This document shows, piece after piece, positions 24,733-59,844 of a DNA stretch of 64,000 bases. The DNA comes from Amphiscolops sp. MND2022 (lineage: Eukaryota). Positions within the stretch are counted from its first letter, which is position 1, and each line of letters begins with the position of its first letter. The stretch spans positions 5,396,001-5,460,000 of the forward strand of contig OZ076409.1 in the NCBI GenBank assembly GCA_964187785.1. The letters are read 5' to 3'. The position numbers were made by a program, and so were the translations under genes. The notes under the pieces were generated by a model, which worked only from the letters and a program-made list of their open reading frames with translations, was not told the DNA's origin and did no database searches.

Positions 24733-25386
24733 CTAAACCATAATAATTTTATGCTTCCAAAAGTACAGCAGGTGAGACCAAAGGGTGCCCCTGTCGTAAG
24801 CACGCGCGTTTGTGGATGTAGTTGGACCGTCTTTCTGACAGTCCATAAATGGCTTACTTCTCGAGTTATCTCTGGAATCTGAGTTTCGCAGAACTTCGGA
24901 ATATCCTTCCGGTCTCTCGGCCGGAACGTTCCATCTTTCTCTGGTCAAATGTCCCGATCCGGCCACAATGGCATTTTGAATCTGGGGTAAAACCTGATTG
25001 CTAATTGCATCAATTATGGCTCTCTGTATCTGAACACTGACACTATTCATCATCTCGTCCATCTCTCTAGATATTCGGGAATTCAATTCACTCGACAGTC
25101 TATTTATCTCAGCACTAGAATTACCTCCAGCAGAGTTTTGGCCGTAATCGGCATTTGGACTAAGTCCGTCATTTCTTGAATTTAAGTACCTGTTTTCATC
25201 ATTATTTTCAAATTGATCACCAAAAGTACTTTCAGGTCTTCTGGCTTGATTACTACTGAGGCTTTCATCTCTCTCATTTCTACTGAAATGGTTTTCTCCG
25301 AGCATCATATCTACATTTTCAATGTCCGAAATTATCTCAACTCCTCTAGATTTTCTGGTTTTCTTCTGCTTTCTTGTTGTAGGCAT
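24733..25386 (-). CDS. Gag N-terminal segment duplicated in the 3' LTR, reading out into flanking DNA
   Basis: Identical to the first 198 aa of ORF 30436-31284 except one residue; diverges exactly at the LTR end (AYD|RGT versus AYD|MVTG). Confidence 0.6.
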   Translation of the reverse strand: MPTTRKQKKTRKSRGVEIISDIENVDMMLGENHFSRNERDESLSSNQARRPESTFGDQFENNDENRYLNSRNDGLSPNADYGQNSAGGNSSAEINRLSSELNSRISREMDEMMNSVSVQIQRAIIDAISNQVLPQIQNAIVAGSGHLTRERWNVPAERPEGYSEVLRNSDSRDNSRSKPFMDCQKDGPTTSTNARAYDRGTLWSHLLYFWKHKIIMV

Positions 25387-26973
25387 TAGAAAGAAAGTCC
25401 GAGGTAAAACAGTGAATTAGGTTTTATTCGGAAAATAGGATTTTGTACGTTGTATCGTAAACAGGTATATCAAACTAAACTTGGAGAAGCAAAATACAAT
25501 TGTGTCCCTCTCGGAAAAATACCAATATATATACCCCTGAGAGGGTGACACTCACATTCCTTTTTAACAATCTATTTACAAATTCCATAAAGGGCACATG
25601 ACTATGGCGGGTGACCACTAACATTCATTCATTTTTAGCGGCGTCAACTGCATCAAAGCACTTTAGGAATTTGTCCCGTTAGGGTCAAAGGGCAATCATA
25701 CCTAATTCATCCGCAGCAACATCATTTAAAGTTTACATAAAATATGGAATGCACTCAAATGCATTTTCTAACTGCAAATACTATCATCAAAGGGGAGCGG
25801 AGGAATTTAGCCTTATTATATTAGGCAAACAACACTTTGACCAAACATCAAAACTAATACTTTCAAATTGTTTACAGTGAGAGGAATGTAAACTATTTAG
25901 CGGCACGTGCCTACACACGTGCGTAGAATCAACAAAACAAAGACACAGTTTCATGCAATAGAAATGAACATAATATAGCAATATGGCCGAATACGGCCAT
26001 TGGACTTGGGAGCTGGCCAATAGTGAAGGCCGGAATAGGACAGGTGACGGGTATTCGGATTGCTACTACTGGCCGTTATTATTGCACTAATTGGATTTAA
26101 AAAGCTCATTAACATCTTCAAGTATATAAATATAATCTTACATGACTGTAAAACAAACTCATTCATGCTTAAAAGCATCTCTAATAATAATAAGCAAAAT
26201 GGCCTAAACCGGCCATTTGCCTTTTGTCCCGCATTACCAATCTAATATAACGTCAAGTGGCCATATACGGCCAATCAATTAAAAATGTGTACAGCGCTTT
26301 ACACAATCTGGCCTGAATAGGCTAATTGCCTCGTATTAAGTAAACATTATTAAAATACTGGTCAAACGGCCTTAACCGTCTGAAAGAGCTAAGTCTGTGG
26401 TGTAGTTAGTTAATACTGCACTAGAGGGGTTATTCAGCCTAAGAGTACAAGCACATGAATCCTGGTTAATAATTAGCATCACAATTGCGCTTTTTGTGAA
26501 ATGGCCGGAACCGGCCGTTTGACTGAATATTTATTAAAAGTAGCGAAGTTATGTCCACAGGCCTTATTCGGCCATTAATGAATGGAAATATTAACTGCGT
26601 AGCAAATGGAGTAATTTGATTGGACAAGGCCGCGTGCTCAAGTGACGTATCTGGTACGGGATTTTATCAATAGCAACTATAATTAAAACAATTAGCAATG
26701 CTTCTTCTAACACCTTTTATCATTGCATCTGACGTATTAAGACAGCTTCAAGTACTTTCCAAGAAAATAAACAGCACTACTGATTAAATAGCACAGATTA
26801 CTTGATGAAAGCTAAATAGGCCGAAACCGGCCATTGGACCAGCGTCCGCGAGCATAGTGGTTAGATTAAGGCAAGCGGCCATAACCGGCCAAATAATGTA
26901 TTGCTGAGAGATAATACTAATACTAGCTATACTGCACTGTGATTGGTTAATTTGCAGGAGGCAGCCTGCGACA
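24792..26973 (-). repeat. 3' LTR (2182 bp)
   Basis: Direct repeat of 30690-32871; only three substitutions noticed by eye. Confidence 0.95.
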
Positions 26974-27112
26974 CTGCGGGTGGAATAAATAAAAACGACC
27001 CTGCATTAAGTCCATTCAAATAAGCTTCCTTCATAATTGCTGTGACGTAGGCCGGCTCACCTCTTGGTGTTGATCTCCTTATCACTCCCGTCATCAGAAT
27101 AGGTGTGAACAA
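26927..27112 (-). CDS. Remnant of a small accessory ORF crossing the internal region/3' LTR junction
   Basis: GEPAYVTAIMKEAYLNGLNAGSFLFIPPAVSQAASC aligns without gaps to GEPYYVKEARRRAFIEGMHAGPYVLIPRGLSRAAAC (59518-59844). Confidence 0.6.
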   Translation of the reverse strand: MFTPILMTGVIRRSTPRGEPAYVTAIMKEAYLNGLNAGSFLFIPPAVSQAASCKLTNHSAV

Positions 27113-28266
27113 TGCTCAAGTTGTTAATATCAAATACACTCGTCTCAAGTGGGTAATTAACGAGTCGCTTGGAGGCAATTAACGGCACGCACCAAAGGTT
27201 TCTCTTAAAATGGTTTTAGCCAATCAAAATTGACTTTCGATAAAATGGAAATTGGATAGTAAAATGGTGAAAATAATAACTAAAATAATCCAGAATGCGG
27301 AAATTCTAACTAAATGGTAATAAGGGCAACGGAACAAAACGGCAAAACGGAACAAGGTAAATGGCCATAATCGGCTTCTAAGTAACTAATTTGTAAATAA
27401 TGAGCAATCTTCTGTACATTTCGCTGGCAGACTCCATGCACAGTTTTAAATTCGTAAATAGCCATAAAATATTAACCCGGTAATCTCTTCAGCCACGAAC
27501 TCCAACTTTTCAATTTTGAGTATCATTATTCTAATTCCTTTATTATTTGGATTTTTGTTCATTTGAATTCATCTTTACGACGTCCATCTCTCTCCGACTT
27601 CATCTTTGTTGCTGACTACATCTTCCTCGGAGTATTCCGGAGCATCTTCCCCTTTTCAGCCGAGCTCGGCCACTTTCCCCAACTTCACCAGCCGAATAAG
27701 GACGCTTACCCAGAAGGAGTTTCCATCACTGCAGGATGTCTTCAAACACAAGTTGATCTGGATTTTTATTTTGAACTAATTTAACTTGATCAGGGTTAAA
27801 ATTTGTTCATAAAATGCTTCCTGCTTCCATCACTAAACACGTGATAACACGTTTCATTCAAATTTTTAGAACACTTTCGAAAGATTTCTGACGCGGCAAA
27901 ATGGATTTCTTTCAAGGAAGCTAACCGCCAAATTTCATCTCTTTCTGTTTATAGAATCAGAACAAAGAGACTACTCGAACACCAGATCCCAATTCACCCG
28001 TGGGTACAGGTTATGCTGTTGTGTTTTCACCGCCCCTGTTTCCTCCTCTTAGAGTAGAGAGGTCCCCAAGTAGTACTGACAGTGTTGATGTTACAGCTTA
28101 CGCTGACGAAAAGGTCAGACTCCATGCAGAGGCTCAATTGCTAGAAGGGTCACAGGTCGCTGAATCATTCATGGGCGACCAAGAGACAAAGGACGAAGAA
28201 GGAAGAAGGGTAGATGCAGTAGGAAGAGAAGTAGAAGGAGAGGTAGAAGCAGAGGGAGGAAGGACT

Positions 28267-29577
28267 TTAAAAATGAAAAGGAAAAGAAGGAAAGAGAGCA
28301 GTGTTCCTTCTTGGACGCTCATTAATCTTTTCGTAGTATCTGAAGTCTTCTGAGTAGTTTGGATTAGGATTAGGTCTCAGATTATATCTTCCACCTCTAG
28401 GACTCCGATTTTCATTTCCTTCATCATTTTGCGATATTTCGGGCACGATAATATCATCCCCCTTTTTTGGAGACTTTTGTGCATCGCTATCATTAGCAGA
28501 ATTTCGTTCTGAAAAATTTGCATCGTTTCCTTGTCTTTCGGAGAGATCCAGCAAAGATTTTTCTGGATTTTTGTGGTAAACGGCCGAATCCGGCCAATCA
28601 GAGTTTTCATTTCTAGTAGCTTCACTATCTTCATTTGCATTGCTGACGTCACTTTTCAGTCGTTTATCTCGACTGTGCTCTGTATCGTTGACGTCATTCG
28701 GACAATCAGTCGTGATTATGTAATCCGCTTCATTCTCGCTTGCGTTATCTGCGTTCGCTTTTGCCGTAGTCAGTCTTTCGCCATTCGGCAAGCTAGCCGG
28801 AATAGGCTCGCTGCCTCGTGTAGCTAGTTGTTCACCAAAGTTTGTTTCCCACGTAATTGTGTACAAATCGTCCTGCGGAATGACAATTTCTTCGTCCGGC
28901 AGTAATCGCTCTTCTCGGAAATTGTCCTCAAGCGGTTGATTGGGGACAAACTTTTTGAGGCGAATTCGATGCAAGATCTGAGTTTTAAGGTTAATGTTGG
29001 TTGACAGGGGTATACAGTCTGGTTCACCATTTTTGGTAATGAGTACATTCAGGAACTGTCTCTCGTCTAGTAGCGATTGTGGAATTGATTCTGCACAGTT
29101 TTCGATATTCTCGGTTCCCAAGGGGTTTGGAAACACCGGATGGTTTAGCGCTCTGGTTTTCTTGTTATGGGTAATTGGAGGGTTCTCGTGGACTGTCTTG
29201 TTGCAATGTTCAATATCGTCTAGAACATATTGAAATTGCAATAGATCCTGGTTGCAGATCTCAGTGTCCCAGTAGTGATCTCTTCCATAATCTGGGTCGA
29301 TGTATGTAGGGTTGTAGTCGTCTACTAAGGGAATGGGCCTGAATCGGATAGTAAAGGTAGTTGTGTAATCAGGATCCCAAACAGGAATTGATTTCTGGAA
29401 CAAATGGGTATTATTATAGGTAATAATGATAGCTTTTTCAATCTGCTGCTGCCAGACAACAGAAGGATAGCCCATCAATTGTTGTTGGTAATTATGAAAG
29501 TTTTTGGTTTGAGGGTCCGATTTGATGTATTGACAGACAGAGACTAGTTGGTTGTATTGGAGTGGTGGCGAAGCTAG
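28267..29577 (-). pseudogene. pol: Pol-frame remnant: pre-protease region joined in frame to post-integrase tail
   Basis: Open from the slippery site at the gag end to 28267; no DTG, YxDD or DDE motifs; junction IPLSTNINLK|TQILHRIRLKKF near 28985; acidic tail ending RYNLRPNP. Confidence 0.7.
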
Positions 29578-30446
29578 TTTTTTGACTCATCTTTGCTTGA
29601 TGAGGATTGGGAATTGGATGATGTTGGCTTGTGATGGGGTTTTGAGGATTTGGGGTCAGGATCGCTGTCCGACGAGTCCTCTGGCCTGGTGCGTTTGGGC
29701 TTGAGATGCGCACCAGCACCTTGCCAGCATCTCTCCTCATGGTGGTTTGTCTTGCCACATGTCCCACATTTAGGATAAACCTTTATCTGTGTGGGCTTGC
29801 CTTGTTGGGCATCTTTCTCCTTTTTCTTTTTGCGCTTTTCACAGTCTTTGACCATGTGGCCCTTTTCTTTGCAATAGTTGCAGGTAATGTCACTCATTTG
29901 GACGTTTGATGGAACAGTTTTTGTTTTTGTGGCTGAAGACGTCATTGATGCCATTGGTAGGTCATCAGATTCTTCAAGGGCGTTTAGCTCCAATTCTCTC
30001 TCAAGATGAGCGACAATTTCGTCATAGGAGCCGTTCTCTAATCTGGCCATATTTACTGATCTTTTTTGCTTGGGCGGCAGTTTTGCGTATAGGAGACTGT
30101 CAATAATCTTTTGGGCATGGTCTCCGAATGCTTTTTCTGCGCCTTGATTCAGCTCTTCGAAAAAATCTGGTAGTTTTGTCGTATTTGGATCAAATACCAG
30201 ACGGTGCCATTTATGTTTGGCAGTTGCTTGAGATTCGGGTTTGACGTATTTCCGTCTGAAGATGACTAATACGTCCTCGAGAGTTTGTCTGTTAGCTGTG
30301 CTAATGTTTCGGAATGTTTGCAGAGCGTTTTTGCTCAAAAGCGAATGAAAATGATTAATTTTCATCTGCTCGGACATCAACTTGATCATCGTGTGGAATA
30401 GATATACGAACAGCCCGAACTTCTTGCTTTTGCCGTCAAAAGTCAT
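29574..30446 (-). CDS. gag: Gag capsid/nucleocapsid with two CCHC zinc knuckles
   Basis: TFDGKS capsid start; CNYCKEKGHMVKDC and CGTCGKTNHHEERC; ends TCA AAA AAC TAG (slippery heptamer). Confidence 0.9.
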   Translation of the reverse strand: MTFDGKSKKFGLFVYLFHTMIKLMSEQMKINHFHSLLSKNALQTFRNISTANRQTLEDVLVIFRRKYVKPESQATAKHKWHRLVFDPNTTKLPDFFEELNQGAEKAFGDHAQKIIDSLLYAKLPPKQKRSVNMARLENGSYDEIVAHLERELELNALEESDDLPMASMTSSATKTKTVPSNVQMSDITCNYCKEKGHMVKDCEKRKKKKEKDAQQGKPTQIKVYPKCGTCGKTNHHEERCWQGAGAHLKPKRTRPEDSSDSDPDPKSSKPHHKPTSSNSQSSSSKDESKN

Positions 30447-31284
30447 AGTGTTTGAGTTGACTGGGCGGATAGTGGGTTGTTGGACGGTTCTGCATACTGG
30501 TCAAGACATCAGCTAGCCTGTTGATAGGATCTTGTTCCGGGGCCGGAACGGTCCTTTCTTGTGCTGGGATCGTCGTGTCGAGCAGGGGATTGAGGTCATC
30601 ATGAGATCGGTTGAGATGACTTTTTGATGGCATTCGTCCCGTGAGAAACTCAGGAATATCAGTTGGAGATTCGTTTTCTCCTGTCACCATGTCGTAAGCA
30701 CGCGCGTTTGTGGATGTAGTTGGACCGTCTTTCTGACAGTCCATAAATGGCTTACTTCTCGAGTTATCTCTGGAATCTGAGTTTCGCAGAACTTCGGAAT
30801 ATCCTTCCTGTCTCTCGGCCGGAACGTTCCATCTTTCTCTGGTCAAATGTCCCGATCCGGCCACAATGGCATTTTGAATCTGGGGTAAAACCTGATTGCT
30901 AATTGCATCAATTATGGCTCTCTGTATCTGAACACTGACACTATTCATCATCTCGTCCATCTCTCTAGATATTCGGGAATTCAATTCACTCGACAGTCTA
31001 TTTATCTCAGCACTAGAATTACCTCCAGCAGAGTTTTGGCCGTAATCGGCATTTGGACTAAGTCCGTCATTTCTTGAATTTAAGTACCTGTTTTCATCAT
31101 TATTTTCAAATTGATCACCAAAAGTACTTTCAGGTCTTCTGGCTTGATTACTACTGAGGCTTTCATCTCTCTCATTTCTACTGAAATGGTTTTCTCCGAG
31201 CATCATATCTACATTTTCAATGTCCGAAATTATCTCAACTCCTCTAGATTTTCTGGTTTTCTTCTGCTTTCTTGTTGTAGGCAT
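30436..31284 (-). CDS. gag: Gag N-terminal region starting inside the 5' LTR; frameshifted from the rest of gag near 30475
   Basis: 282-aa ORF crossing the LTR end (30690) and PBS; alternative frame TIRPVNSNTMTFDG links to the next ORF. Confidence 0.8.
   Translation of the reverse strand: MPTTRKQKKTRKSRGVEIISDIENVDMMLGENHFSRNERDESLSSNQARRPESTFGDQFENNDENRYLNSRNDGLSPNADYGQNSAGGNSSAEINRLSSELNSRISREMDEMMNSVSVQIQRAIIDAISNQVLPQIQNAIVAGSGHLTRERWNVPAERQEGYSEVLRNSDSRDNSRSKPFMDCQKDGPTTSTNARAYDMVTGENESPTDIPEFLTGRMPSKSHLNRSHDDLNPLLDTTIPAQERTVPAPEQDPINRLADVLTSMQNRPTTHYPPSQLKHYDF
30678..30689 (-). promoter_or_regulatory. Primer binding site TGGTGACAGGAG
   Basis: Immediately after the 5' LTR terminal CA; same as 656-667. 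Confidence 0.8.
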
Positions 31285-32871
31285 TAGAAAGAAAGTCCGA
31301 GGTAAAACAGTGAATTAGGTTTTATTCGGAAAATAGGATTTTGTACGTTGTATCGTAAACAGGTATATCAAACTAAACTTGGAGAAGCAAAATACAATTG
31401 TGTCCCTCTCGGAAAAATACCAATATATATACCCCTGAGAGGGTGACACTCACATTCCTTTTTAACAATCTATTTACAAATTCCATAAAGGGCACATGAC
31501 TATGGCGGGTGACCACTAACATTCATTCATTTTTAGCGGCGTCAACTGCATCAAAGCACTTTAGGAATTTGTCCCGTTAGGGTCAAAGGGCAATCATACC
31601 TAATTCATCCGCAGCAACATCATTTAAAGTTTACATAAAATATGGAATGCACTCAAATGCATTTTCTAACTGCAAATACTATCATCAAAGGGGAGCGGAG
31701 GAATTTAGCCTTATTATATTAGGCAAACAACACTTTGACCAAACATCAAAACTAATACTTTCAAATTGTTTACAGTGAGAGGAATGTAAACTATTTAGCG
31801 GCACGTGCCTACACACGTGCGTAGAATCAACAAAACAAAGACACAGTTTCATGCAATAGAAATGAACATAATATAGCAATATGGCCGAATACGGCCATTG
31901 GACTTGGGAGCTGGCCAATAGTGAAGGCCGGAATAGGACAGGTGACGGGTATTCGGATTGCTACTACTGGCCGTTATTATTGCACTAATTGGATTTAAAA
32001 AGCTCATTAACATCTTCAAGTATATAAATATAATCTTACATGACTGTAAAACAAACTCATTCATGCTTAAAAGCATCTCTAATAATAATAAGCAAAATGG
32101 CCTAAACCGGCCATTTGCCTTTTGTCCCGCATTACCAATCTAATATAACGTCAAGTGGCCATATACGGCCAATCAATTAAAAATGTGTACAGCGCTTTAC
32201 ACAATCTGGCCTGAATAGGCTAATTGCCTCGTATTAAGTAAACATTATTAAAATACTGGTCAAACGGCCTTAACCGTCTGAAAGAGCTAAGTCTGTGGTG
32301 TAGTTAGTTAATACTGCACTAGAGGGGTTATTCAGCCTAAGAGTACAAGCACATGAATCCTGGTTAATAATTAGCATCACAATTGCGCTTTTTGTGAAAT
32401 GGCCGGAACCGGCCGTTTGACTGAATATTTATTAAAAGTAGCGAAGTTATGTCCACAGGCCTTATTCGGCCATTAATGAATGGAAATATTAACTGCGTAG
32501 CAAATGGAGTAATTTGATTGGACAAGGCCGCGTGCTCAAGTGACGTATCTGGTACGGGATTTTATCAATAGCAACTATAAATAAAACAATTAGCAATGCT
32601 TCTTCTAACACCTTTTATCATTGCATCTGACGTATTAAGACAGCTTCAAGTACTTTCCAAGAAAATAAACAGCACTACTGATTAAATAGCACAGATTACT
32701 TGATGAAAGCTAAATAGGCCGAAACCGGCCATTGGACCAGCGTCCGCGAGCATAGTGGTTAGATTAAGGCAAGCGGCCATAACCGGCCAAATAATGTATT
32801 GCTGAGAGATAAAACTAATACTAGCTATACTGCACTGTGATTGGTTAATTTGCAGGAGGCAGCCTGCGACA
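30690..32871 (-). repeat. 5' LTR (2182 bp)
   Basis: Direct repeat of 24792-26973, adjacent to PBS. Confidence 0.95.
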
Positions 32872-34119
32872 GCCCCCTTTGGGTTTTTTTGGCACTATGC
32901 GACTTTTTTTCGAAAATTTTCGGATTCTATCAAAGGGTAACCCCTTGCATTTTTTTGAAGTTTTTGGTTTGTAAAAACGTTAAATGAGCCTGAATGGCCT
33001 CTTTTTGAGTTTTTCGGCATTGTGCGACTTTCTAAAAAAAAACTTTTTTTCGAAAAAAAAATTTCAAAATTTTTTTTTGAAAAAAATAATTTTTCCAAAT
33101 GTTTCCAATAGTTGTTCTTTGAATATTTTTGAGCCTTAGATATGACGCCGACTTGAGACGATCCCGTCTTGTTGTCACTCAAAACAGGAAGTTGTTGATT
33201 TCTTTTTCTCTGCTTTTTCAAGAATGCGTGACTTCATTCGTAAAAATAGTGTGAACAAAGTTTGCATCTCAAATCCAAACTGTCACATTGGAAATGAATT
33301 ACAATTGAAGGTTTCTGTTTTATGTCAAAGTCTCTTTGTCATAATATTTCCACAAAGTTTCCAAAAAAACATGGTAAGGGGGATTGAAAAGAGCCGACAT
33401 ATCAGATCTTTTTACTATGTCCCCCCTTTTGACTCGTTACACTATGCCCCCCATCTATTGGTTTTCATTTGCAAATCTCCACTCAGCCAATCAGAAGCAA
33501 TTATACTTCATACATGCATTTAAAACTGTTTCACTTTGTCCTCCCTTTTGGCTAGAGGGGGGACACAGTGAAAGAGGTCCGTAATATCTCAAAAGAAGGC
33601 AAGATTCGCTCACGTCGGCGCTTCCTTCATCCCTAGTTGGATCTGTTGGGAAGTTTTGCATGTTCACCAATGTTGCCAAGCACTTTCAGTATGATTTTGG
33701 AAGTTCCTTAGTGAATCATTCATTTTCCCAAATATTTCCCAGATACAATGCCATTTCTTCAAGTATTTATTAGGATTTCTATACAACTTTGTGGGTTTTC
33801 AGAGAAACAACAAGGACGAGAAAGACAAATGAAAGTAAATTTTTAGAAAATTTCAGACTGGCCTAATTAAATGTGGAATCTTCTTTCATAACAGGAAGTT
33901 AAACAGAAAAGAGCCAAATACTCATCAGGAGTATGTCTTATAACAAGAAAATCTAAAATCAGAGAAATCACATTTATGTTGATAAGCTGATAAGTTGAAG
34001 TGCATCATTCAAAGTTATTTTTTTCTGCCCATATAAGGAAAAAAGAACAATTTTTGAGAAATATTTGGAACTCAAAAAGTTTTTTATGCGTTCTATATTA
34101 GTGAACCGGAACATGTATC

Positions 34120-46604: not shown

Positions 46605-47319
46605 ATATGACAAAGAAAAAACAGTCTTTGATAAACCAATTTACCTGGGATTCTCTGTTTTAGAACTGAGTAAATTGTTAATGTAAGAGTTTTAATATCA
46701 GAAAATACAACCATTTTAAAATAACAGAATTAAACTGCATTATATGGATACAGACTCATTGATTCTAAGTATAAAAACTTTAAACATTTTAATAGACTTG
46801 GAATCACCAATTTTTGAATTAGACAACTTCGTAGCTTTAGGATCAAAATCATATTCGTTTAGTTACAAAGATATGCAAAGCAATACTCAAAAGGTAACGC
46901 AAAAGACAGTGCAAAGCACAATCCAAAAGTCAAAACAAAAAGGAATACAACATACACCAATCCTCAATCGATTTATAAAATCAACATTTAGTTCTCAAAC
47001 AACAACAGCAACTAATTATTCTATCCGTTCAAGTGCGCACAACTTAACCGTTCAGAAACAAGATAAACTAGATTTGAATCCTTTTGATGATAAAAGAGTG
47101 TACTTAAATCCAATACAAAGTTTATCATGGGATAAACACACCCAGAAAGGCGATTGTCCTTGTATATATTGTTTGAAATTAATTGGTTTGTATTATAAAG
47201 AAATAACTGAAGGATTGAGGAATGATGAAAAAATATACTATAACACTTGGACTCTGAAAGAAAATCTAAGTCATCAACAGCTTTTAAGTCTGATAAGTGA
47301 TCGGGCACAACTTTTATAA
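46605..47319 (+). pseudogene. polB: Protein-primed DNA polymerase B, C-terminal part
   Basis: FDKPIYLGFSVLELSKLLM...LHYMDTDS catalytic motif, FVALGSKSYS, KQKGI, LNPFDDKRVY; in-frame stops upstream of 46744. Confidence 0.88.
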
Positions 47320-47399
47320 ATACACCTAAAAAACATTTATAATGGGATATGTTGGGTTATGATTTATGATAGGTTATGATTGGTTATACCTTTGATTCA

Positions 47400-48527
47400 T
47401 CATTTCAAGTCAAAATGTCTATGTCCATCACTACTAATACTTATTAGTTTTGCGGTTAGAACTAATGCATAAGCTATATAATCAGCTACATCAATAGCAG
47501 CACTTATTTTAAATTCTAATCTAACAGGTTGACTCGCAATGTGATCGTTTTGTTTGCTTAGGTCAAATACATAAAAATTGAAATTTGTTCTGATTTTGTG
47601 CAAATCAATAAATGGGTTGAGTAAGTTAGTTTCATTTTGCAAGTGATAAAAGTTTTCAATTTCCTTGTATGCTCGATCATATTTGTCGCGGTCGTAGTCA
47701 CATTCTATTGCATTATCATGTGTTTGTGAATCAATTTTATCTCTTTAAATCCAATAATTACAAAAGTTGGAGACGACTCGCCACTATTGCCTAATTCAAA
47801 TGTCCAATTGTTATTGGTGCTAACATCCCTTCTAAAAACAATCCGTTCCGCGTAACTCAACTCGGTTGGGTCTTTATTCAGTAGCTGATCCATAACAAGT
47901 TGTTGGTTTTCGATTCTGGGTATATAGTGTGGAATATACCAACTTATGTCTTTTACAACTACTTTTGCAGCATCCACCCCATTGCCTCTTATGATAGCAT
48001 CATTGTTATTGTTCCGTTTTAAAGTAAGAGTATAGCCCAATCCATGAGTTATTTTTTCTTGATCAGCAAAACCAAACAAGTCTTTTAGTTTTATTCTCAC
48101 AAAAAAGTTCCTTTCTCTGTTTTATTGTTTGTTAGTTCTTGTCTCGTGATTGCAGTATTTTGAGAAGATTGTTGAGTGCTAGTCAAACACTTGTACATTA
48201 AAGAAATTGAGTGCAAATTGTCAACTTTTTCCAGGTGTTTCCCCGCACTTGTTGTCAGTTTAGCTTCACTCAATAAAGCAACGGGCCCAAATTAACCAAG
48301 CTTATTTCATCACCGTTGGCATATCTTGTATCATCATTTTTAAGGACTTCAAGTTCTAATAAGATGTAAGAAAGCTGTAAACATATGTATGCATCTTTTC
48401 TTGGCAAACTGATACTTATATTCGAGTTGGCGTTATTGATTGTCGCTAAACTACTTGGAAAATATTTAATAAAATCAATTTTATGAATAGGTTTCTCAAG
48501 AATGTATTTACTCTTTATAGAAAACAT
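47400..48527 (-). pseudogene. Major capsid protein (double jelly-roll), three frameshifted fragments
   Basis: beta-rich fragments incl. IKLKDLFGFA...YTLTLKR...ISWYIPH.IP...PTFVIIGF...FYVFDLSKQ...VRLEFK resembling Polinton-type MCP; ~1.1 kb in viral context. Confidence 0.75.
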
Positions 48528-48599
48528 TGATTCTATTTATAATTAAAAATTATTGGAAAATTGCCGGAAAATTACTCGAACTTGTGGAAAATATTCATA

Positions 48600-49436
48600 C
48601 TTTCTAACCTTTTGTTGTTATAGTCAAAGTTGAATATATTTCTTAAAAGTTCTTGTTCATAGTATTTTCCTTGAATAATTTCTCTATTTTCATCTTCCAA
48701 AGTTTATGTTACTGGGTCGTTGTGTTGATGCTGTGTATTTTGAAAAGTTCTCTATTCCAATTTATTGTGCAACCTTTTGAATAAATGTTCCTTTCGCCAG
48801 GAACTCTTACAAAATCTCCCACTTGGAACTTGGGGACTTTGGGCAGTTTGGGGAATGGTATTAGACTTGGTTTTGGTGTGTTATTTTTAGAAACCATTCC
48901 AAATAGTGTCATTTTTGTTGAATCATGAACACGATTATTATTTTATCCAAAGCATTATTAATGTGATTCAACCAGTTACCTTTACCTTCAATATACATTG
49001 GTTCTTTGATTCAGTCCAGAAGTGTTTTATTGAAGCGTTCAACAAAAACAGCTTTCAAATCTGAATTGGTTAAATAAATTTGAAAATTTTGCTCTTTTAA
49101 ATAGTGCAAAAATGTCTGGCTGTAAAACTCTTTACCTCTATCACTCCACACTTTTCGCGGTTTTCTTTTACTAGTTTCCAATAAATTCTTGAATGCAGTT
49201 GTTGTACTTTCTCCTGATTTATCTTTGAGAGGAATCGCACATGCATATTTAGTATGATTGTCAATTATTGTGAAAATAAATTTGTAGTTTTTGTTGTAAT
49301 TGCTTGAACTTGAGCGATCAATTAAATCAATACTCCAAAATTCATCTTTATAGTGAGTTTGTATTTGAATTCTTCGAAACTTCTCGATTACAGGAGAGAA
49401 TACTTCTTTAGCAATCTGCTCTTTCTTTTGGTTCAT
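48600..49436 (-). pseudogene. int: Retroviral-like (rve) integrase of Polinton type
   Basis: WSIDLID, IIDNHTKYACAIPLKDK, VWSDRGKEF, VERFNKTL (D,D,E) and C-terminal PKFQVGDFVRV...KG...NWNRELFKI. Confidence 0.92.
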
Positions 49437-49586
49437 TTATTATAGTATCAAACAATTTTTACTAATTAAATGAAAAATGAATATTACATGAATGATGATA
49501 AAGGTGGGAGCAGTCGCGACGACGAAAATAAATTACCCTGGTATCAGACGATACGAGGCCGTATAAAACCAATCTTTACGAATCCA

Positions 49587-50613
49587 ATGTTTTTACCATT
49601 TAAATTTTATTTATAATTATTGCATTTATTATATATTGGTATTACGTTCGTCCTAAATGGTATTAAAAAATTTATAAAAAATTATTTAAATTTGATAGGT
49701 TCAAATACTCTCATCTGAAAAGCCAAAAAATTGAGAGCTCAGAAAATCAACAACTTGCTCCACCAATTGGAAATACTAACTCTCATTTTCTAATACTTGG
49801 AAGTAGTGGGTCGGGGAAGACATCTTTTTTAAAGCATTATTTAACACAGAAAAAATCAAACTTTGTAGTATTCGGACGAGATAGTACTGAGTTTCATGCT
49901 TCCAACTTTGTTCCTTTGTTACATTTAGAAAAATTAGGTATTGAATCACTTGCTAATGAAACGGTAATACTGGATAATGCAGGTGCATACAAGAGTCTCA
50001 AAATAAAAGTAGAAGACTTATTTCGGCTTGGTAGACATCATAACATCCAGGTATTTTATCTCGCTCACTATGCAAAGGATGTTCTCCCAGTTGTAAAAGA
50101 AAACTGCCTCAAGTTGTATTTAACAATTAACAACCCAGATAACTTTTTTGAGTCGATTGTGCAAACCTATTCAATCAAAGAATTAAAGTGGAGACAATAC
50201 CGTGATCGGTTAGAATTTGGTATGATTGAATTTGACACCCGTAGTCAGTAGTACAGAGTACTAAACCTCAAGTACAATTTAATTTATGAATCTAGTAAGC
50301 GCAACAAGTGGAGTCCCGAGGACTACGTTGCTTATGGAATGTTTTTTTTCACTGGTGATGTGTATCATAGATTAAAGGTGTTTTTAGAGGAGATGTCTGA
50401 CCAGACAATTGAAATAACACCATACAACGTAGCTTTTTATTATGTGGAGTATTGTAAACAAAATTAAATAAAAGTGAATGAATCCAAAATAGACAACTAC
50501 ACAGAGCGTATGCAACAACCACTGATTCCAGACAAAGTTAAAGAGGACTTTAAGAAAATTATATATGATCATACAATCAATTACAGCAAGACACAGGTAA
50601 ATTCGGAGAATTA
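49587..50613 (+). pseudogene. A32/FtsK-HerA-like packaging ATPase 1 (ends approximate, internal stops)
   Basis: Walker A GSSGSGKT (49799-49822) in frame with VILDNAG (Walker B) and LFRLGRHHNIQVFYLAH. Confidence 0.75.
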
Positions 50614-50923
50614 ATTCTTAGAGAAGTTTATAGAAGTTTAGAGATATTTAGAGATATTTAGAGATATTTAGAGGATATGAGTGATTCCTTAAAGAATTTG
50701 AGTGACTCTCTAAGACTCTTTAAGACTCTCTAAGATTCTTTCAACTCCTCTAAGAGCACACATATTCTCTAAGATGTATGCTCTTAGAGAAGTTGAGAGA
50801 AAATATTTCCTCTTAGAGTTTTTAGAGGAAATTGAGAGATTTCTTTGTGATTTTTTGCTTAGTGATTCTTAGAGGAGTTGAGATAAGATTAGTAAACAAT
50901 TTTGTAATTTTTTCACTAAATGA

Positions 50924-51960
50924 ATGAAGTGCTTAATTTGTAGGGAAAGTAGTGAAAAATCACTGTGTGATGATTGCAATAAAAAAAAGATGTGCGGATT
51001 GTAATGAGATGAAAATGGACTTCTATTCATATGAAAATTGTGAAATGTATAACGTTTGTAAAGAATGTTTCAACAAAAAGGTAAGGGGTGAATTTTGTAA
51101 TAAGAAATTAATTAAGAGTTATTTAAGGTCTCATATCAAGAAGCAGCATATACAACATAATATCCAGCATCATTATAATCAGCAGCACATACACCAGCAA
51201 CGGTATAATGGTAGTGGTATTGGTAGTGGTGTTTACAACGATAGTGCTTTACAATGATTCAATACTGCTTGCATTGGTGTTTCCGGAGGTCCTTCCGGAG
51301 GTCCTTCCGGAGTTGCTTGCAATAGCGAGCAGAATACCGATAGTGAGAATAATAGGACATTAATAGTTGGTCCATCATTTTGTGGTAAGACTCATTTGCT
51401 GTTGAATAAATTACGATTGAATCGTTTGAATGACTATGAGACAAATTCCCCATCGCCACAAATTCATATCATTACGAGGAGTCCGGAACAATACGAAGAT
51501 GTGAAACTAGAATTAGAACTAGGAGATGCTTTGCAAGACGTTTCAGTGGAAGAAAATTTGGAGGATTTGGAAATGTACCGGGGGTGTTGTGTAGTATTTG
51601 ATGATATGCTAGACTCCAATCAGAAATTAATAGATCCATTTTTTACTAGAGGAAAGACACAAAAACTTGGATATTTGTAATTTATCACAAAGTTACTTCA
51701 ATGTACCAAAAAAGACAATTAGAAACAATTCGAATGTAATAAGTTTGTTTCAACAAGCATTTGAAGATTTTGAACACATTTATAGAGATATAGCAGGTTT
51801 TGATATGTCTTATGACGAATTCAAACAACTGTGCAGAGAGGCATGGAAAAAAATACTGTTATTTTTTAATAAACAGGCTAGAAGATAAAAATAGGAGAAG
51901 GTACAAGATTTGCAATGAATCTAATTCAAATTACAAGATCTTTAATCCACATACTGAACC
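50924..51960 (+). pseudogene. Zinc-finger-fused A32-like packaging ATPase 2
   Basis: Cys/His-rich ORF 50952-51257 is in frame, across one TGA, with TLIVGPSFCGKT (51369-51392), VVFDDM, FFTRG and, after a frameshift, LSQSYFNVPKKTIRNNSN. Confidence 0.82.
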
Positions 51961-52493
51961 TTTTTGAAGTTGGGTGCATCAAATGTGCTTTGTAATGTGG
52001 AATTAAAATTGCTTTGCATATTTTGGTGTTGGGAGGGTGTAAAGCATTCATACTCTATTAGTTTATCTACATTTGCTATCATTTGTTCATTGAACAGAAA
52101 ACTGTCATTTCCTCCTACTTTTTCAAAATAAAGTAGTTTTAATTGATCAACTAATTCGTCTGGATCAGATGGGAGGAAGACGATGTGGCTCTGCGTGTAG
52201 CCCTGGAATCCGCTTCTCGCGTAGTTTTGCGTGTAGCTCTGCAATCCGCTTCCTAATTGAATGTCGTCGATAGTATTACCCCAATGGAATTGTTGATAGC
52301 GAGAGTACAACTCTTCAATAAAATAACATCTCGTTGATTTGTTATCCCCATAGTATATGTTATAATTCATATCATCTAAGAAACTATATATTGTGTCCAG
52401 GTTATTTATTTCTCTAGCAATTTGTGTATTAGTTATAAAATATTGAAGATCTAGGTCATTTAGATCGTACGAAATCTCATTCTGGAAAGTCAT
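51942..52493 (-). CDS. Polinton conserved protein (LPSDPDELVDQLKLL motif), copy 1
   Basis: 183-aa ORF with GSG motif followed by LPSDPDELVDQLKLL...GN...NE, a pattern I recall from Polinton-associated proteins; ATAAATG start. Confidence 0.6.
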   Translation of the reverse strand: MTFQNEISYDLNDLDLQYFITNTQIAREINNLDTIYSFLDDMNYNIYYGDNKSTRCYFIEELYSRYQQFHWGNTIDDIQLGSGLQSYTQNYARSGFQGYTQSHIVFLPSDPDELVDQLKLLYFEKVGGNDSFLFNEQMIANVDKLIEYECFTPSQHQNMQSNFNSTLQSTFDAPNFKKVQYVD

Positions 52494-53225
52494 TTATGAA
52501 CCATTGATTATTACAAATTGGGGGTTATGGAGGTTAATTGTGAATAAATTTGGATTGTTTTGTGTAATTGGTTCTAAACTAAATTGACGTTTGGTGTTAA
52601 GAAGGTTGGAAACTGCCTTTACAATACTGGAACCAACTTGGTTGGAATTAACAAGACTCGTAAGAAGTTGATTATTACGGTTTGTAATTTCATCATAATC
52701 TTGAATTCCCTGTTTATTAGATTTTTGCAGATTATCATACAAAGTGTTGCTACTTTCTTGAATAGCCAATGAAGAATCATGAAAAGCTTGTATTTGCTAT
52801 TCAGATAATTGTTTTTGGTTTTCAGTAGCTTCCACCTGCTTTGCAGTAACAGGTTTAAAAACTTCTTCCATATCGTAGTGGAAGTATTGCTTCCCTAGTT
52901 TCTTTTTTAATCTTTCTTTGTGTAGTAAAGAGTTTGTTTCTTGCACTTTTTCAAATTTTTCTAAGTCATCCCGAGAATGAATTGAATACATTTATTAAAT
53001 ATACTTAATGAATTTTCCCCAAATATAAACCCTTCCCTTGATCTTTAATCCACATACTGAACCTTTTTGAAGTTGGGTGCATCAAATGTGCTTTGTAATG
53101 TGGAATTAAAATTGCTTTGCATATTTTGGTGTTGGGAGGGTGTAAAGCATTCATACTCTATTAGTTTATCTACATTTGCTATCATTTGTTCATTGAACAG
53201 AAAACTGTCATTTCCCCCTACTTTT

Positions 53226-53600
53226 TCAAAATAAAGTAAGTAGTTTTAATTGATCAACTAATTCGTCTGGATCAGATGGGAGGCAGACGATGTGGCTCTG
53301 CGTGTAGCCCTGCAATCCGCTTCCCGCGTAGTTTTGCGTGTAGCTCTGCAATCCGCTTCCTAATTGAATGTCGTCGATAGTATTACCCCAATGGGATTGT
53401 TGATAGCGAGAGTACAACTCTTCAATAAAATAATATCTCGTTGATTTGTTATCCCCATAGTTTATGTTATAATTCATATCATCTAAGAAACTATAAATTG
53501 TGTCCAGGTTATTTATTTCTCTAGCAATTTGTGTATTAGTTATAAAATATTGAAGATCTAGGTCATTTAGATCGTATGAAAGCTCATTCTGGAAAGTCAT
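53226..53600 (-). pseudogene. Same conserved protein, copy 2, truncated by a 4-bp insertion
   Basis: Near identical to copy 1 until QLKLL, then frameshift at ~53237. Confidence 0.6.
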
Positions 53601-54119
53601 TTATGAACCTTTGATTAATACAGGTTGGGGGTTATGGAGGTTAATTGTGAATAAATTTGGATTGTTTTGTGTAATTGGTTCTAAACTAAATTGACGTTTG
53701 GTGTTAAGAAGGTTGGGAACTGCCTTTACAATACTGGAATCAACTTGGTTGGAATTAACCAGACTCGTAAGAAGTTGATTATTACGGTTTGTAATTTCAT
53801 CATAATCTTGAATTCCCTGTTTATTAGATTTTTGCAGATTATCATACAAAGTGTTGCTACTTTCTTGAATAGCCAATGAAGAATCATGAAAAGCTTGTAT
53901 TTGCTTTAAAGATAATTGTTTTTGGTTTTCAGTAGTTTCCACCTGCTTTGCGGTGGCTTCCGCCTGCCTTGCAGTAACAGGTTTAAAAACTTCTTCCATA
54001 TCGTAGTGGAAGTCTTGCTTCCCTAGTTTCTTTTTTAATCTTTCTTTGTGTAGTGAAGAGTTTGTTTCTTGCACTTTTTCAAATTTTACAGAGTCATCCC
54101 GATTATGAATTGAATACAT
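53601..54119 (-). CDS. Polinton hypothetical coiled-coil protein; copy at 52494-52991 is broken by a stop
   Basis: 172-aa ORF with EEVFKPVT motif, ATAAATG start, duplicated. Confidence 0.55.
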   Translation of the reverse strand: MYSIHNRDDSVKFEKVQETNSSLHKERLKKKLGKQDFHYDMEEVFKPVTARQAEATAKQVETTENQKQLSLKQIQAFHDSSLAIQESSNTLYDNLQKSNKQGIQDYDEITNRNNQLLTSLVNSNQVDSSIVKAVPNLLNTKRQFSLEPITQNNPNLFTINLHNPQPVLIKGS

Positions 54120-54133
54120 TTATTAAATATATT

Positions 54134-54560
54134 TAATGAATTTTCCCCAAATATAAGCGCTTCCCTTGATGTACAAGTTTTACAATATCAGGAGCAGATG
54201 CAGCAGTAAGGTTTGGATTTTAACTTGCTGCTGCAGTTTCAATATTTGCTGCTATTTCCAATGCGCGGGCTGGATTATTGAGTATTTTCTTTCCAACGTT
54301 CTTGGCGGCAGCTTTCGCAGCTTTTCCCACACCTCGGAAATGGTCGCCCAATCCTTACCCTTTTATTGTTTGATCAGATACTAAAAGGGAGTTATTTCTT
54401 TCACACGTAGTACAAGTACCACGTAATGATTTTACGGGTAATCATGTTTTTTTATTTTTAGTACTATCTCCACGAATATTTGTGGTAGCGGAATAATGTT
54501 TTCCATCAACACCATATGAAATATTTTTAAATTTACCGAAAGTGCTTTGCTTATTGTAGC
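54134..54560 (-). pseudogene. Small virion-type protein: CxxC region plus basic amphipathic helix (pVI-like candidate)
   Basis: Single frame with three stops: ...RGTCTTC...IKG*GLGDHFRGVGKAAKAAAKNVGKKILNNPARALEIAAN... Confidence 0.5.
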
Positions 54561-55064
54561 TCAGTTATAAGGAAAAAAATTCATTATATTTTTAAGAATC
54601 AAATCTTGATAATTTGAATTGTGAATGTTAATGTCTCCCCGTTGAAATAAACTCTGTTGTCTGTTGTGGTTGGAGTCTGCTAGGAAAAATTGGATGGTGT
54701 CCAGTCGTGTTTTGTTTCTTTTTTTATACAAAACAGTGGTTGGTTCTTTTATAATTTTATATCCGGGATGTGCGCTTAAATTAAATGAAGATAAACTTCG
54801 TTCTCGAAAACCATAAACAATTGAACCATCTACGCAGTCGCACTTCAGGTGAACTTTGTCGGTGGTTGTTATTATGACTGGTTTCTCTGACGTGTGAATT
54901 CCGGGTGGGTAATCTTTAAGTGTAAAACCCAAAAGAAAGTTAAGTCTGGAATTAAAGTGAATATGGTGTGAGGTTGTTAAAACTGATTTCATTGATATTG
55001 TGTTGGGATATATATAGACTTTGAAATCATTATCACTTTCATCAATTTTTTTGTTTAAAGGCAT
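54561..55064 (-). pseudogene. Minor capsid protein (penton-like single jelly-roll), partial
   Basis: LLGF...SEKPV.I...VHLKCDCVDGSIVYG...FNLSAHPGYKIIKEP...Y...IQFFLAD pattern characteristic of Polinton minor capsid. Confidence 0.75.
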
Positions 55065-55148
55065 TATTTATATCAACTAGTTCATAAGCTCCTGGTGTTA
55101 GTTGTATTTCAAAGAAATCGTTTTCAATAATCTCAAAGCTTGGTATGT

Positions 55149-55641
55149 TTAGAGTTGGTGGCATATCTCGCCCTGACTTGGTGGGAGAGATGAAATTTTA
55201 GACTGTTGTTTTGGCGGTTTATTATATTGTTTGAAAGTTTCTATTATTTTAATTAATTGGTAGTACAAACTTAGTACTGCATTTTTGAAGCCAATTATGT
55301 TCGTGAGATACAACACATACAAAGAATTCGCTGCACAATAACTATCAATTTTCTGAATTTGACATTCTGAATAGAAACCATTTTTTGTTCGTTTCATTAT
55401 GTTTACTGGAGGTGGACAGCCATAAGAATCAAAATCAAATTCGTTAACAAACATAATCCAATGTTCCTTTAGTTGGGTGTAAATTTACAATTCCAAAATC
55501 TGTTGTAAACTTATCAACTCTCATGTATATTCCACACGGGATATTTATTTCATTAAGTATTTCTTTTATTTTTACATTAGAAGTTGCTTTATTTTTTAGT
55601 CTGTATTTTTCAACAAATTCTTTGAATGATGAATAATTCAT
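55149..55641 (-). pseudogene. Adenain-like cysteine protease (frameshifted)
   Basis: GIVNL...GT, then HWIM across a frameshift at ~55463, FDSYGCPPP, IQKIDSYCA (His, Asp, Gln, Cys residues). Confidence 0.8.
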
Positions 55642-58343: not shown

Positions 58344-59567
58344 TGTAAGGACTCTCTCCCTCAGGTTCCATAAGTTTTCGGCAAGAGCGAGAGTTTCCGC
58401 TAAAGAAATGGTTTCCATCCACGTTGCGTTCATCATTCTCCGCATTATGAGGCTTCTGGACATTGAAGGGACACATTCCAACTGTCTGTTCAGTATCGTT
58501 TCAACAACCCTTGCACTTGCGTAATTATCTTTTCAGATATCGCTGAGCTTATGGCATCCTCTATCTGGGCGTTCATCCCACTTAATAGGCTATTCCTCTC
58601 CTGAGAGGTGCTTTAATTTATTTCACCAGACAACATGTCTAAATCTTTTGTTAGATTTGGATTAGGTCTATTTTCAGGCATGTTTCTAATTTCATTTTCT
58701 TGAGATAAATCACTTCTCATTGAAATACTTTCTCCATTTTCATCCCTGTTAAGTATACCTGAAAACCCTGTCATTTGATCAATGTATCTTTCTATTTCAT
58801 TGTACTCACCACTACCAAGCATGACATCCAAATTCTTTATGTCTGACATTATTTCAGCTTCTCTAGACTTCCTGGCTTTTTCTTTCTTGCTCTATGTCGA
58901 AGACATTTTTTGGAATAAAATTTAGTAACTCGTAACTTGACTCATTAGATTCAATGAATTCCAAGTGTTCAAGAGTGACAACAATGCCTGTTACTTCATT
59001 CCACAAAACTTGTTGTGTCCCCTCCTTTGGGGAATCTTGTGTATATACCCTAAGCTGCATGACTTTCAGTTTTAGGTCAATCATAAGATTAAAAAAAGCA
59101 CTGCTTCATGGTAGTCATGCTATGCTGCCTTCGAAGGATTCATTTTGACACTTTCCTATGAATAGTAATGCACTATGTGTTTAGAAGGTCATCAAAAAAT
59201 AGTACCTTTAATACTCTAATGACAGTGACTTGACAATTAGGTGAATTTCATGAATACATGTATCACTAGGCGTACTGCATACAAGAACATGAGAGACATG
59301 TCTATCAATGTCTTAAGAACACGTAGTAAGACACTATCTTCGTTTTGATTCAACTGTTGATACATGTAATTTACATTCCAATTACATGTGTGTTAGTACA
59401 GTTACATGTGTGTTAGTACAAAAAGTTACATGACTTGTTAATGGTACAGAAGTTTACAGTTTGTAGAATTTTCGCAGAGTACTCAGAGAAGCGGCAAGTT
59501 GGAAGGTGTAGAATTTGTTAATATCGCACTCCGTAAACGTTATCATCACAGGCTGCCGCCCGTGACA
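58344..59567 (-). repeat. Putative 3' LTR (~1.22 kb)
   Basis: Right edge GTGACA at the position homologous to 26973; left edge TGTAAG tentative because the partner LTR is outside the window. Confidence 0.55.
58345..58906 (-). pseudogene. Gag N-terminal segment inside the LTR
   Basis: MSST*SKKEKARKSREAEIMSDIKNLDVMLG...LDMLSGEIN aligns with MPTTRKQKKTRKSRGVEIISDIENVDMMLG...INRLSSELN. Confidence 0.72.
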
Positions 59568-59844
59568 AACCCCGAGGAATTAGGACGTAGGGCCCAGCAT
59601 GCATGCCCTCAATGAACGCTCTTCTTCTCGCCTCCTTGACGTAGTAGGGCTCACCTGGGTAATCTGTGTTGTGAATGAAGTCGATCACTATTTCGCCTGC
59701 TATTTGCTCATATAGCTTCCCACATATCATACAGTTCGTGAAGTACCCCTGGGTTGCGCCATTAAGCATTTGAGAGGGTTGTCCAGCAGGCAAATGCACC
59801 TGCATTGGTGTGGAAGGGGGCTGACAGGGTCCGGACTGACTCAC
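59518..59844 (-). CDS. Small accessory protein with CxxC, crossing the 3' LTR boundary
   Basis: CMICGK...GEPYYV...AFIEGMHAG...LSRAAAC; homolog at 26927-27112. Confidence 0.6.
   Translation of the reverse strand: MSQSGPCQPPSTPMQVHLPAGQPSQMLNGATQGYFTNCMICGKLYEQIAGEIVIDFIHNTDYPGEPYYVKEARRRAFIEGMHAGPYVLIPRGLSRAAACDDNVYGVRY

Follow-up and report, generated by a model that had tools for sequence, protein, structure and literature searches.

A clade of acoel Ty3/gypsy elements in which the LTR probably encodes the head of Gag

In Ty1 of Saccharomyces cerevisiae (Ty1/copia, Pseudoviridae), GAG starts ~40 nt within the LTR, about a dozen codons, and reverse transcription is primed by initiator Met tRNA. 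Coding sequence also overlaps the U3 of the 3' LTR in HIV nef, MMTV sag and the integrase tail of CRM. The parts of PMC4974528 used here place the Ty1 PBS inside the GAG ORF, at RNA nt 94–104, and describe for Ty3 a 5' PBS segment that adjoins the 5' UTR. Antisense ORFs between pol and the 3' LTR are reported for the large elements Grande, RIRE2, Retand and Boty; the consulted sections of these reports (PMC7264820, PMC6317226) describe no gag start inside the LTR, and the review among them has LTR followed by gag as its standard layout. TR-GAG elements, from plants, are non-autonomous, under 4 kb and have a single ORF (PMC4350172, in part), and MDG1 carries small ORFs upstream of gag in a preprint whose consulted sections show no in-LTR gag start (bioRxiv 10.1101/2025.03.14.642691). 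Such a layout is likewise absent from the descriptions in the consulted parts of PMC4402516 (Tor), PMC5408684 (rotifer) and PMC4202319 (microsporidia), and from those of the genome papers PMC6451197 and PMC11410931; the supplements of the errantivirus survey PMC13524379 gave no match to six names of acoels or xenacoelomorphs, and acoel names do not occur in the portions seen of its main text either. An exact-phrase literature search, which is insensitive and has Repbase, GyDB, Dfam and subscription journals outside its scope, returned no account of the clade described below, or of a gypsy gag beginning hundreds of bases inside the LTR.

Self-comparison of the window (the whole stretch of 64,000 nucleotides from Amphiscolops sp. 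analysed here) revealed one long direct repeat, the LTR pair of an 8.1 kb element with a pol remnant ORF, a copy of what we call family A. Its features, in the order of its own strand, are:

32872..32876 (-): target-site duplication (TSD) GGGGC, 5' side; partner at 24787-24791
30690..32871 (-): 5' LTR, 2182 bp, TGTCG...CGACA
31423..31431 (-): TATA box, 147 nt 5' of the gag ATG
31321..31326 (-): AATAAA, candidate polyA signal, 42 nt 5' of the ATG
30690..31284 (-): LTR-coded Gag N-terminus, 198 codons; basic start motif, disorder, predicted helix aa 90-141, disorder
30678..30689 (-): primer-binding site, 12 nt complementary to host tRNA-Leu(CAG) + CCA; in-frame reading (M)VTG
30436..30689 (-): Gag linker 3' of the PBS; the frame shifts near 30484 and stops at 30436 in this copy
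29574..30500 (-): region of gag for capsid and zinc knuckles; in this copy its frame differs from that of the N-terminus
28267..29586 (-): internal segment, 5' of the shortened 3' internal region
26974..28266 (-): 3' internal region, shortened, with relics of an antisense cassette and a junction ORF and with the mRNA-capture site of sister copies
24792..26973 (-): 3' LTR, 2182 bp, 3 differences from the 5' LTR
24733..25386 (-): second gag head, in the 3' LTR, 217 aa, running 19 codons into flanking host DNA

The LTRs have TG..CA ends, the TSD falls within 4–6 bp and a tRNA PBS adjoins the 5' LTR. The host tRNA-Leu gene was called by ARAGORN at two of six loci, and a related family has a 20-nt PBS match to tRNA-Leu. 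The bases just before the 3' LTR, at the position of the polypurine tract (PPT), are GGGGAG in families C and D, CCCGCAG in A and B and GGCGCCC in J. The gag ATG lies at LTR position 1588, 595 nt (198 codons plus 1 nt) from the LTR end. Shuffling this 595-nt stretch 20,000 times never gave a sequence free of stops, and the other two frames of the stretch contain 10 and 27 stops in a sister copy. The last LTR base and the PBS, TGGTGACAGGAG, read D|MVTG continuously with the gag frame. An earlier note on this DNA had put an ATG at 31284 inside the LTR, the LTR edge at 30690 and a coding PBS reading MVTG; each of these placements stands, the edge on the TG..CA ends, the 5-bp TSD and the 2182-bp repeat pair. 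Its ORF of 30436..31284 begins correctly, but both its 282-aa length and its end at 30436 result from the frameshift near 30484: Gag is 569–574 aa in 25/25 fetched sister copies, which were chosen by best protein score, favouring intact frames. A search of the genome itself found an open frame of 573–582 codons in most of the copies listed (138 of 14,397 candidates scored). A dense tandem tRNA-Leu-like array, of the primer type of these elements, was also noticed at ~35.59-35.64 Mb of G000:C8, the pattern matching 849 times genome-wide.

The window copy has no protease, RT, RNase H or integrase domain (Pfam). The same pol deletion, identical in 25/25 fetched family A copies, leaves the first ~213 aa and the last ~217 aa of pol; family A is therefore non-autonomous, and the window copy is a deletion derivative within it. 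The family nevertheless keeps the full gag ORF in most copies, and it is still multiplying, presumably mobilised by autonomous relatives. In lacking pol enzymes and keeping gag it resembles the TR-GAG elements as the available part of their description presents them, from which it differs in its ~8 kb size, its retained pol ends and its gag start in the LTR. The start of its capsid carries family-specific changes and a 3-aa gap at positions that are otherwise invariant elsewhere.

In some family A copies host mRNAs have been captured, always at the same exact internal position, and each starts with the acoel spliced leader (L031:6561-7740, L039:6046-8002, L147, L148, L151, L275-L282; the window equivalent is near 27234). 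They occur in 5/25 fetched copies, with 8 exact junction matches genome-wide, and five genes are represented: TRPM (3), CSE1 (2), an SLC28 nucleoside transporter, an XRN exonuclease and WDR36. The last 96 nt of the TRPM and CSE1 inserts are identical to each other, suggesting that capture was serial and that the leader is a template-switch site that can be used again. Retroposition mediated by LTRs is already known (PMC5131818, in part) and the capture seen here extends it; a leader-guided capture hotspot was not found in the literature search. The leader matches the published acoel leader in the part of PMC9911081 consulted and has 1750 exact matches genome-wide, several dispersed ones heading LINE-like ORF1 retrocopies (by inspection). 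Its RNA genes are in tandem at ~16.23-16.41 Mb of G000:C1 (L168-L186), each with leader, GT donor and a AATTTTTG Sm-type site.

The gag start lies within the LTR in six families of this genome: by 595 nt in A, 592 in B, 565 in C, 556–562 in D, 382 in J and 322–343 in E. The length is 1 mod 3 in every one of them. For B the figure holds in 39/39 copies, of which 5 had both LTRs fetched and 34 were placed by the position of the PBS, and for E in 13/13 (1 with both LTRs); J is represented by three copies with LTR pairs, two of them measured. The ATG formed at the junction by LTR CA and TGG is in the gag frame in all six families, and the N-terminal tip, M-x(1-2)-T-R-x-(Q/K), is similar throughout. 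The nearest autonomous relative of A is B, with a Gag head ~78% identical; at ~16 kb, it encodes a gag of 573 aa, a pol of 1738 aa (PR-RT-RH-IN), three antisense ORFs and a sense junction ORF. Pfam matches in an autonomous relative (L041) confirm the order protease, RT, RNase H, integrase, and Ty1/copia membership is ruled out by an integrase that does not precede RT. The capsid is Ty3/Arc-like (ESM Atlas top match 0.95, Ty3_capsid), while zf-CCHC and DUF1759 matches are near or below the Pfam cut-off only. Pol order, capsid type, CCHC knuckles and 5-bp TSD are those of conventional Metaviridae, including errantiviruses and the Oikopleura Tor elements. As separate observations, two pol proteins of the clade (P0215, P0221) carry a precomputed dUTPase domain (PF00692), and a tandem run of family B elements shares LTRs at 14.47-kb spacing (G000:C12 14.83-14.88 Mb; L047, L048).

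The acoel families thus match Ty1 both in a gag start within the LTR and in a PBS inside gag. They differ from it in being Ty3/gypsy elements with the pol order given above, in using tRNA-Leu rather than initiator Met as primer, and in an overlap of 107–198 codons, some ten times the ~40 nt of Ty1. The earlier judgement that about 200 codons within an LTR is unusual is upheld, with 198 here against about a dozen in Ty1.

Whether the LTR stretch is constrained as protein was assessed from substitutions. Its dN/dS is 0.11 and 0.15 between A and B, 0.08 and 0.22 within B, 0.15 in D and 0.24 in C (CI 0.09–0.66); over A–D six of nine pairs are unsaturated, the three wider ones being saturated. In E the ratio is 0.09–0.18 (4/12 unsaturated pairs), with a third-position excess in 12/12, and in J the LTR part has pS of 0.22–0.25 against pN of 0.04. 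Within B, piN/piS over 39 copies is 0.12 (0.09–0.17) in the LTR part and 0.02 in the capsid, so that constraint on the LTR part is the weaker. The copies compared had been selected by best protein score, a choice that favours intact frames. The LTR-coded part is under purifying selection in the five autonomous families, which bears out the constraint implied by the earlier note, at dN/dS of 0.08–0.24 and, in B, piN/piS of 0.12; from this selection, its translation can be presumed. Within A, piN/piS is 0.40 (0.14–1.19) in the LTR part, an interval that does not demonstrate present-day selection, 0.59 in the capsid and 1.20 in the C-terminus. Family A Gag is under relaxed selection. Synonymous divergence dips in the first 30 codons past the PBS (A/B, D and E pairs), a pattern expected if an RNA signal overlaps gag; no consistent stable RNA fold was seen around the PBS (z-scores −2.4 to +1.1, mononucleotide shuffles).

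A TATA box occurs 116–164 nt 5' of the gag ATG in 9/9 LTRs of families A–D, and also in J; it is missing in family E LTRs. Transcription would start downstream of it, ~90–130 nt 5' of the gag ATG, and nine of ten leaders have no upstream ATG, so ribosomes would initiate at the LTR ATG as the first AUG. The AATAAA near this ATG is found in family A only and is not conserved in B–D, and the genome yielded no polyadenylated retrocopy ending near it in an exact-pattern test, which is weak. The R/U5 border generally cannot be set without RNA (PMC3601003, in part). Reverse transcription would be primed inside gag, and the minus strong-stop DNA, computed from the TATA position, is predicted to be 451–712 nt (in E from an assumed 120-nt leader). 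Such DNA would carry the head to the 3' end, which would explain a gag head in both LTRs. The predicted range, 450–710 nt, compares with ~90 for Ty1, whose PBS lies at RNA nt 94–104 (PMC4974528, in part). The head in the 3' LTR forms a run-off ORF of 199–229 aa, 20 of the 23 measured being complete; that of the window copy has 217 aa.

In 39 family B copies, the mean difference is 14.2% in U3, 7.8% in LTR-coded gag, 1.4% in the 400 nt past the PBS and 4.2% over the 700 nt that follow. Distances between heads correlate with those of U3 (Mantel rho 0.78), the first 400 nt past the PBS (0.64) and the capsid region (0.30). Of the sites diagnostic for the two main types of U3, with 21 and 7 copies, 33 are in the head and 5 within 900 nt past the PBS. 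Across these copies the head follows the LTR (U3) type more than the capsid type. A sharp swap point at the PBS was only partly supported: no diagnostic site lies between −208 and +202 of the PBS, the last in the head being 209 nt before it; the boundary is blurred by ~200 nt, and the stretch just past the PBS varies with the head as well (rho 0.64). Pairwise profiles resolve three modules, the gag–pol interior, the antisense cassette, and the junction ORF with the LTR. The pattern fits template switching in which one parent's LTR frames another's interior, and switches between co-packaged RNAs could join one parent's head to another's capsid.

The heads of A–D, E and J have no detectable homology (hhalign probability at most 2.2%), and have in common only a basic tip and a disorder–helix–disorder plan; either fast divergence or replacement would account for this. 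AlphaFold gives one helix at aa 90–141 (pLDDT ~60–78) in a low-confidence Gag model (mean pLDDT 50), and a fold search with that model gave only non-significant capsid matches, none at E <= 0.001. Searches of metagenome contigs, Pfam, PDB sequences and the ESM Atlas (best 0.75) yielded no relative of the LTR-coded head. With its basic tip, single helix and disorder, the head is predicted to be an RNA-binding, localisation or oligomerisation module.

The other internal LTR edge is occupied in autonomous relatives by a junction ORF of 160–321 aa (10 copies measured), which crosses the PPT and ends 83–92 nt inside the 3' LTR. It is in sense, conserved and without a Pfam match (L042:4835-5797 and homologues), and in 7/8 pairs synonymous exceed non-synonymous differences in its in-LTR part. 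Since this ORF and the gag head are both constrained, both internal LTR edges are coding in the autonomous families. The earlier claim to that effect therefore holds for them; in the window copy only a remnant of the junction ORF is present. Like nef, sag and the CRM integrase tail, the ORF ends inside the 3' LTR; those overlap U3 only, whereas here coding sequence covers both edges and overlaps the LTR mainly on its R/U5 side. Between pol and the 3' LTR the clade shares with plant and fungal gypsy elements the possession of additional antisense ORFs. The antisense cassette, ~4.3 kb, is 35–48% different between copies with near-identical gag–pol (L042, L044, L046, L048, L050), and thus swaps as a module.

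A second, family-C-like element in the window is represented by two features:

58344..59567 (-), limits approximate: 3' LTR, with a decayed gag head at 58344-58906
59518..59844 (-): junction ORF remnant, crossing into that 3' LTR

The segment 58344-58906 had been cited as a homologous gag portion within an LTR. It is homologous (tblastn E 3e-11; 72% DNA identity to family C LTRs) and does lie in an LTR, but its in-frame stops and the lack of a PBS after it identify a decayed 3' LTR.

Searches with distant RT proteins identified related families in the same genome, with 49–57% RT–RH identity. Fourteen of 18 fetched copies have LTR pairs and belong to the conventional families F, G, H, K, M and N; the others are one family E copy and three family I copies in which no LTR pair was detected, I being assigned to the conventional group by PBS position only. 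In the six conventional families LTRs of 320–443 bp are followed by the same tRNA-Leu PBS, a leader of 79–1178 nt and a capsid-first Gag of 330–420 aa. Their junction codon opens a frame of only 7–12 aa in 6/8 copies and is TTG in the other two. Most of these relatives have a sense ORF of 750–810 aa 3' of pol (L118, L120, L126, L128, L260, L266, L268, L270, L274), without a significant Pfam match in the six tested; the label 'env-like' that we apply to it is provisional, taken from position and size. In having a sense third ORF these relatives resemble Metaviridae such as the env-bearing errantiviruses.

Families B, C, D, J and E form one clade (SH-aLRT 99.5, UFBoot 85; a quick tree was similar), in which A, having no RT, is placed by its Gag. 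RT–RH is ~27–33% identical to that of named elements of other animals, on a long branch from few named proteins. The grouping of the conventional families has support of 88/28, which does not settle paraphyly, and the direction of change therefore leans on Ty3-type outgroups. With the Ty3-type layout as the wider default, the in-LTR gag start is most likely a single derived change. It goes together with an antisense cassette that stands where the env-like ORF would be, a link seen as a correlation on a single branch. A capsid-first gag would have been extended upstream through leader and LTR, once in this lineage, and the env-like gene may have been exchanged for the antisense cassette together with that extension. 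The earlier suggestion of a distinct architecture is borne out in that the layout is clade-wide and absent from related families; sharing its logic with Ty1, it is less unique than was claimed.

Several other explanations of these data were considered. The overlap might be an artefact of local duplication or of wrongly placed LTR limits, and the window copy does carry a deletion and a frameshift; we give this practically no credence, as the TG..CA ends, the TSD and the PBS sit at the exact edge and the arrangement recurs in independent insertions of six families. Gag might instead start at the ATG that spans the LTR end and the PBS (CA|TGG), the LTR frame being untranslated. That ATG indeed shares the gag frame in each of the six families, and what lies downstream of it, 374 aa, approximates a conventional Gag of 330–420 aa in size. 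Yet the LTR part shows purifying selection, in-frame indels and a conserved N-terminal tip; moreover, the ATG is a by-product of CA plus TGG, which opens only the 7–12 aa frames in conventional families, and one family D copy has ATA there. The selection leads us to reject a start solely at the primer-site ATG, and we regard it as very improbable. A less easily dismissed alternative, still unlikely, involves two products: Gag might be initiated both at the LTR ATG, as a long form, and at the junction ATG, as a short capsid-first form, or the head might be cleaved off or be made as a separate accessory protein from 3' or solo LTRs. The junction Met is maintained in frame, every 3' LTR has a promoter and a head with its run-off ORF of 199–229 aa (20 complete of 23), and ~200-aa proteins of this sort are abundant in the protein collection. 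Several in-frame AUGs between the two starts disfavour leaky scanning, however, the genome yielded no join of spliced leader to gag (again a weak exact-pattern test), and the head frame is continuous with the capsid in intact copies.

A further alternative concerns the origin of the layout: the LTR boundary may have slid downstream, a new PBS arising inside a long gag and the old PBS, leader and gag start being absorbed into the LTR. The mechanism is a simple one, and it would place copies of the gag head in both LTRs at once; a tandem PBS duplication exists in a related family (L269), and ingroup LTRs are 2–7 times the outgroup length. Against it, ten ingroup LTRs contain no PBS relic (best match 3–8 nt), and the outgroups have the same tRNA-Leu PBS with no Gag extension. 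We consider such sliding improbable.

We therefore favour, with considerable though not full confidence, a Ty3/gypsy clade in which a selected gag frame spans the LTR interior and a tRNA-Leu PBS, and in which a Gag of ~470–570 aa is likely translated from the LTR ATG as a single protein. What is new here is the selection across families, the comparison with conventional relatives, the LTR-linked reassortment and the non-autonomous status of family A; the Ty1 logic and antisense ORFs were known. In gypsy elements R/U5 and the primer site are as a rule non-coding; the layout departs from this for up to a third of Gag, well beyond Ty1. It predicts unusually long strong-stop DNA and Gag chimeras formed by simple recombination, and the conventional relatives in the same genome offer a rare before-and-after comparison of a capsid gene gaining an N-terminus as an env-like gene is lost. 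ORF finders will make a false gene of ~200 aa from each 3' or solo LTR, in a type of genome of which about half is reported to be LTR elements (PMC9911081, in part).

More tentatively, the LTR may be a portable cassette of promoter, Gag head and 3' accessory tail, a possibility that we think worth stating although we incline against it. Heads would be re-dealt by template switching, unrelated heads (A–D, J, E) would be acquired by whole-LTR replacement, the LTR-matched specificity module would have arisen with loss of the env-like gene, and 3' and solo LTRs would stand ready for host fusions. If so, the specificity of the head could lie in RNA selection, cell compartment or evasion of silencing, and thousands of 3' and solo LTRs would each offer a promoter and an open N-terminus to host fusion genes.

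Elsewhere in the window, positions 46700-55500 hold decayed ORFs and a 1.1-kb tandem duplication at 51937-54170. By motifs that we take to be integrase-like (49011-49436) and ATPase-like (49667-51680), this region presumably resembles a Polinton/Maverick-type element.
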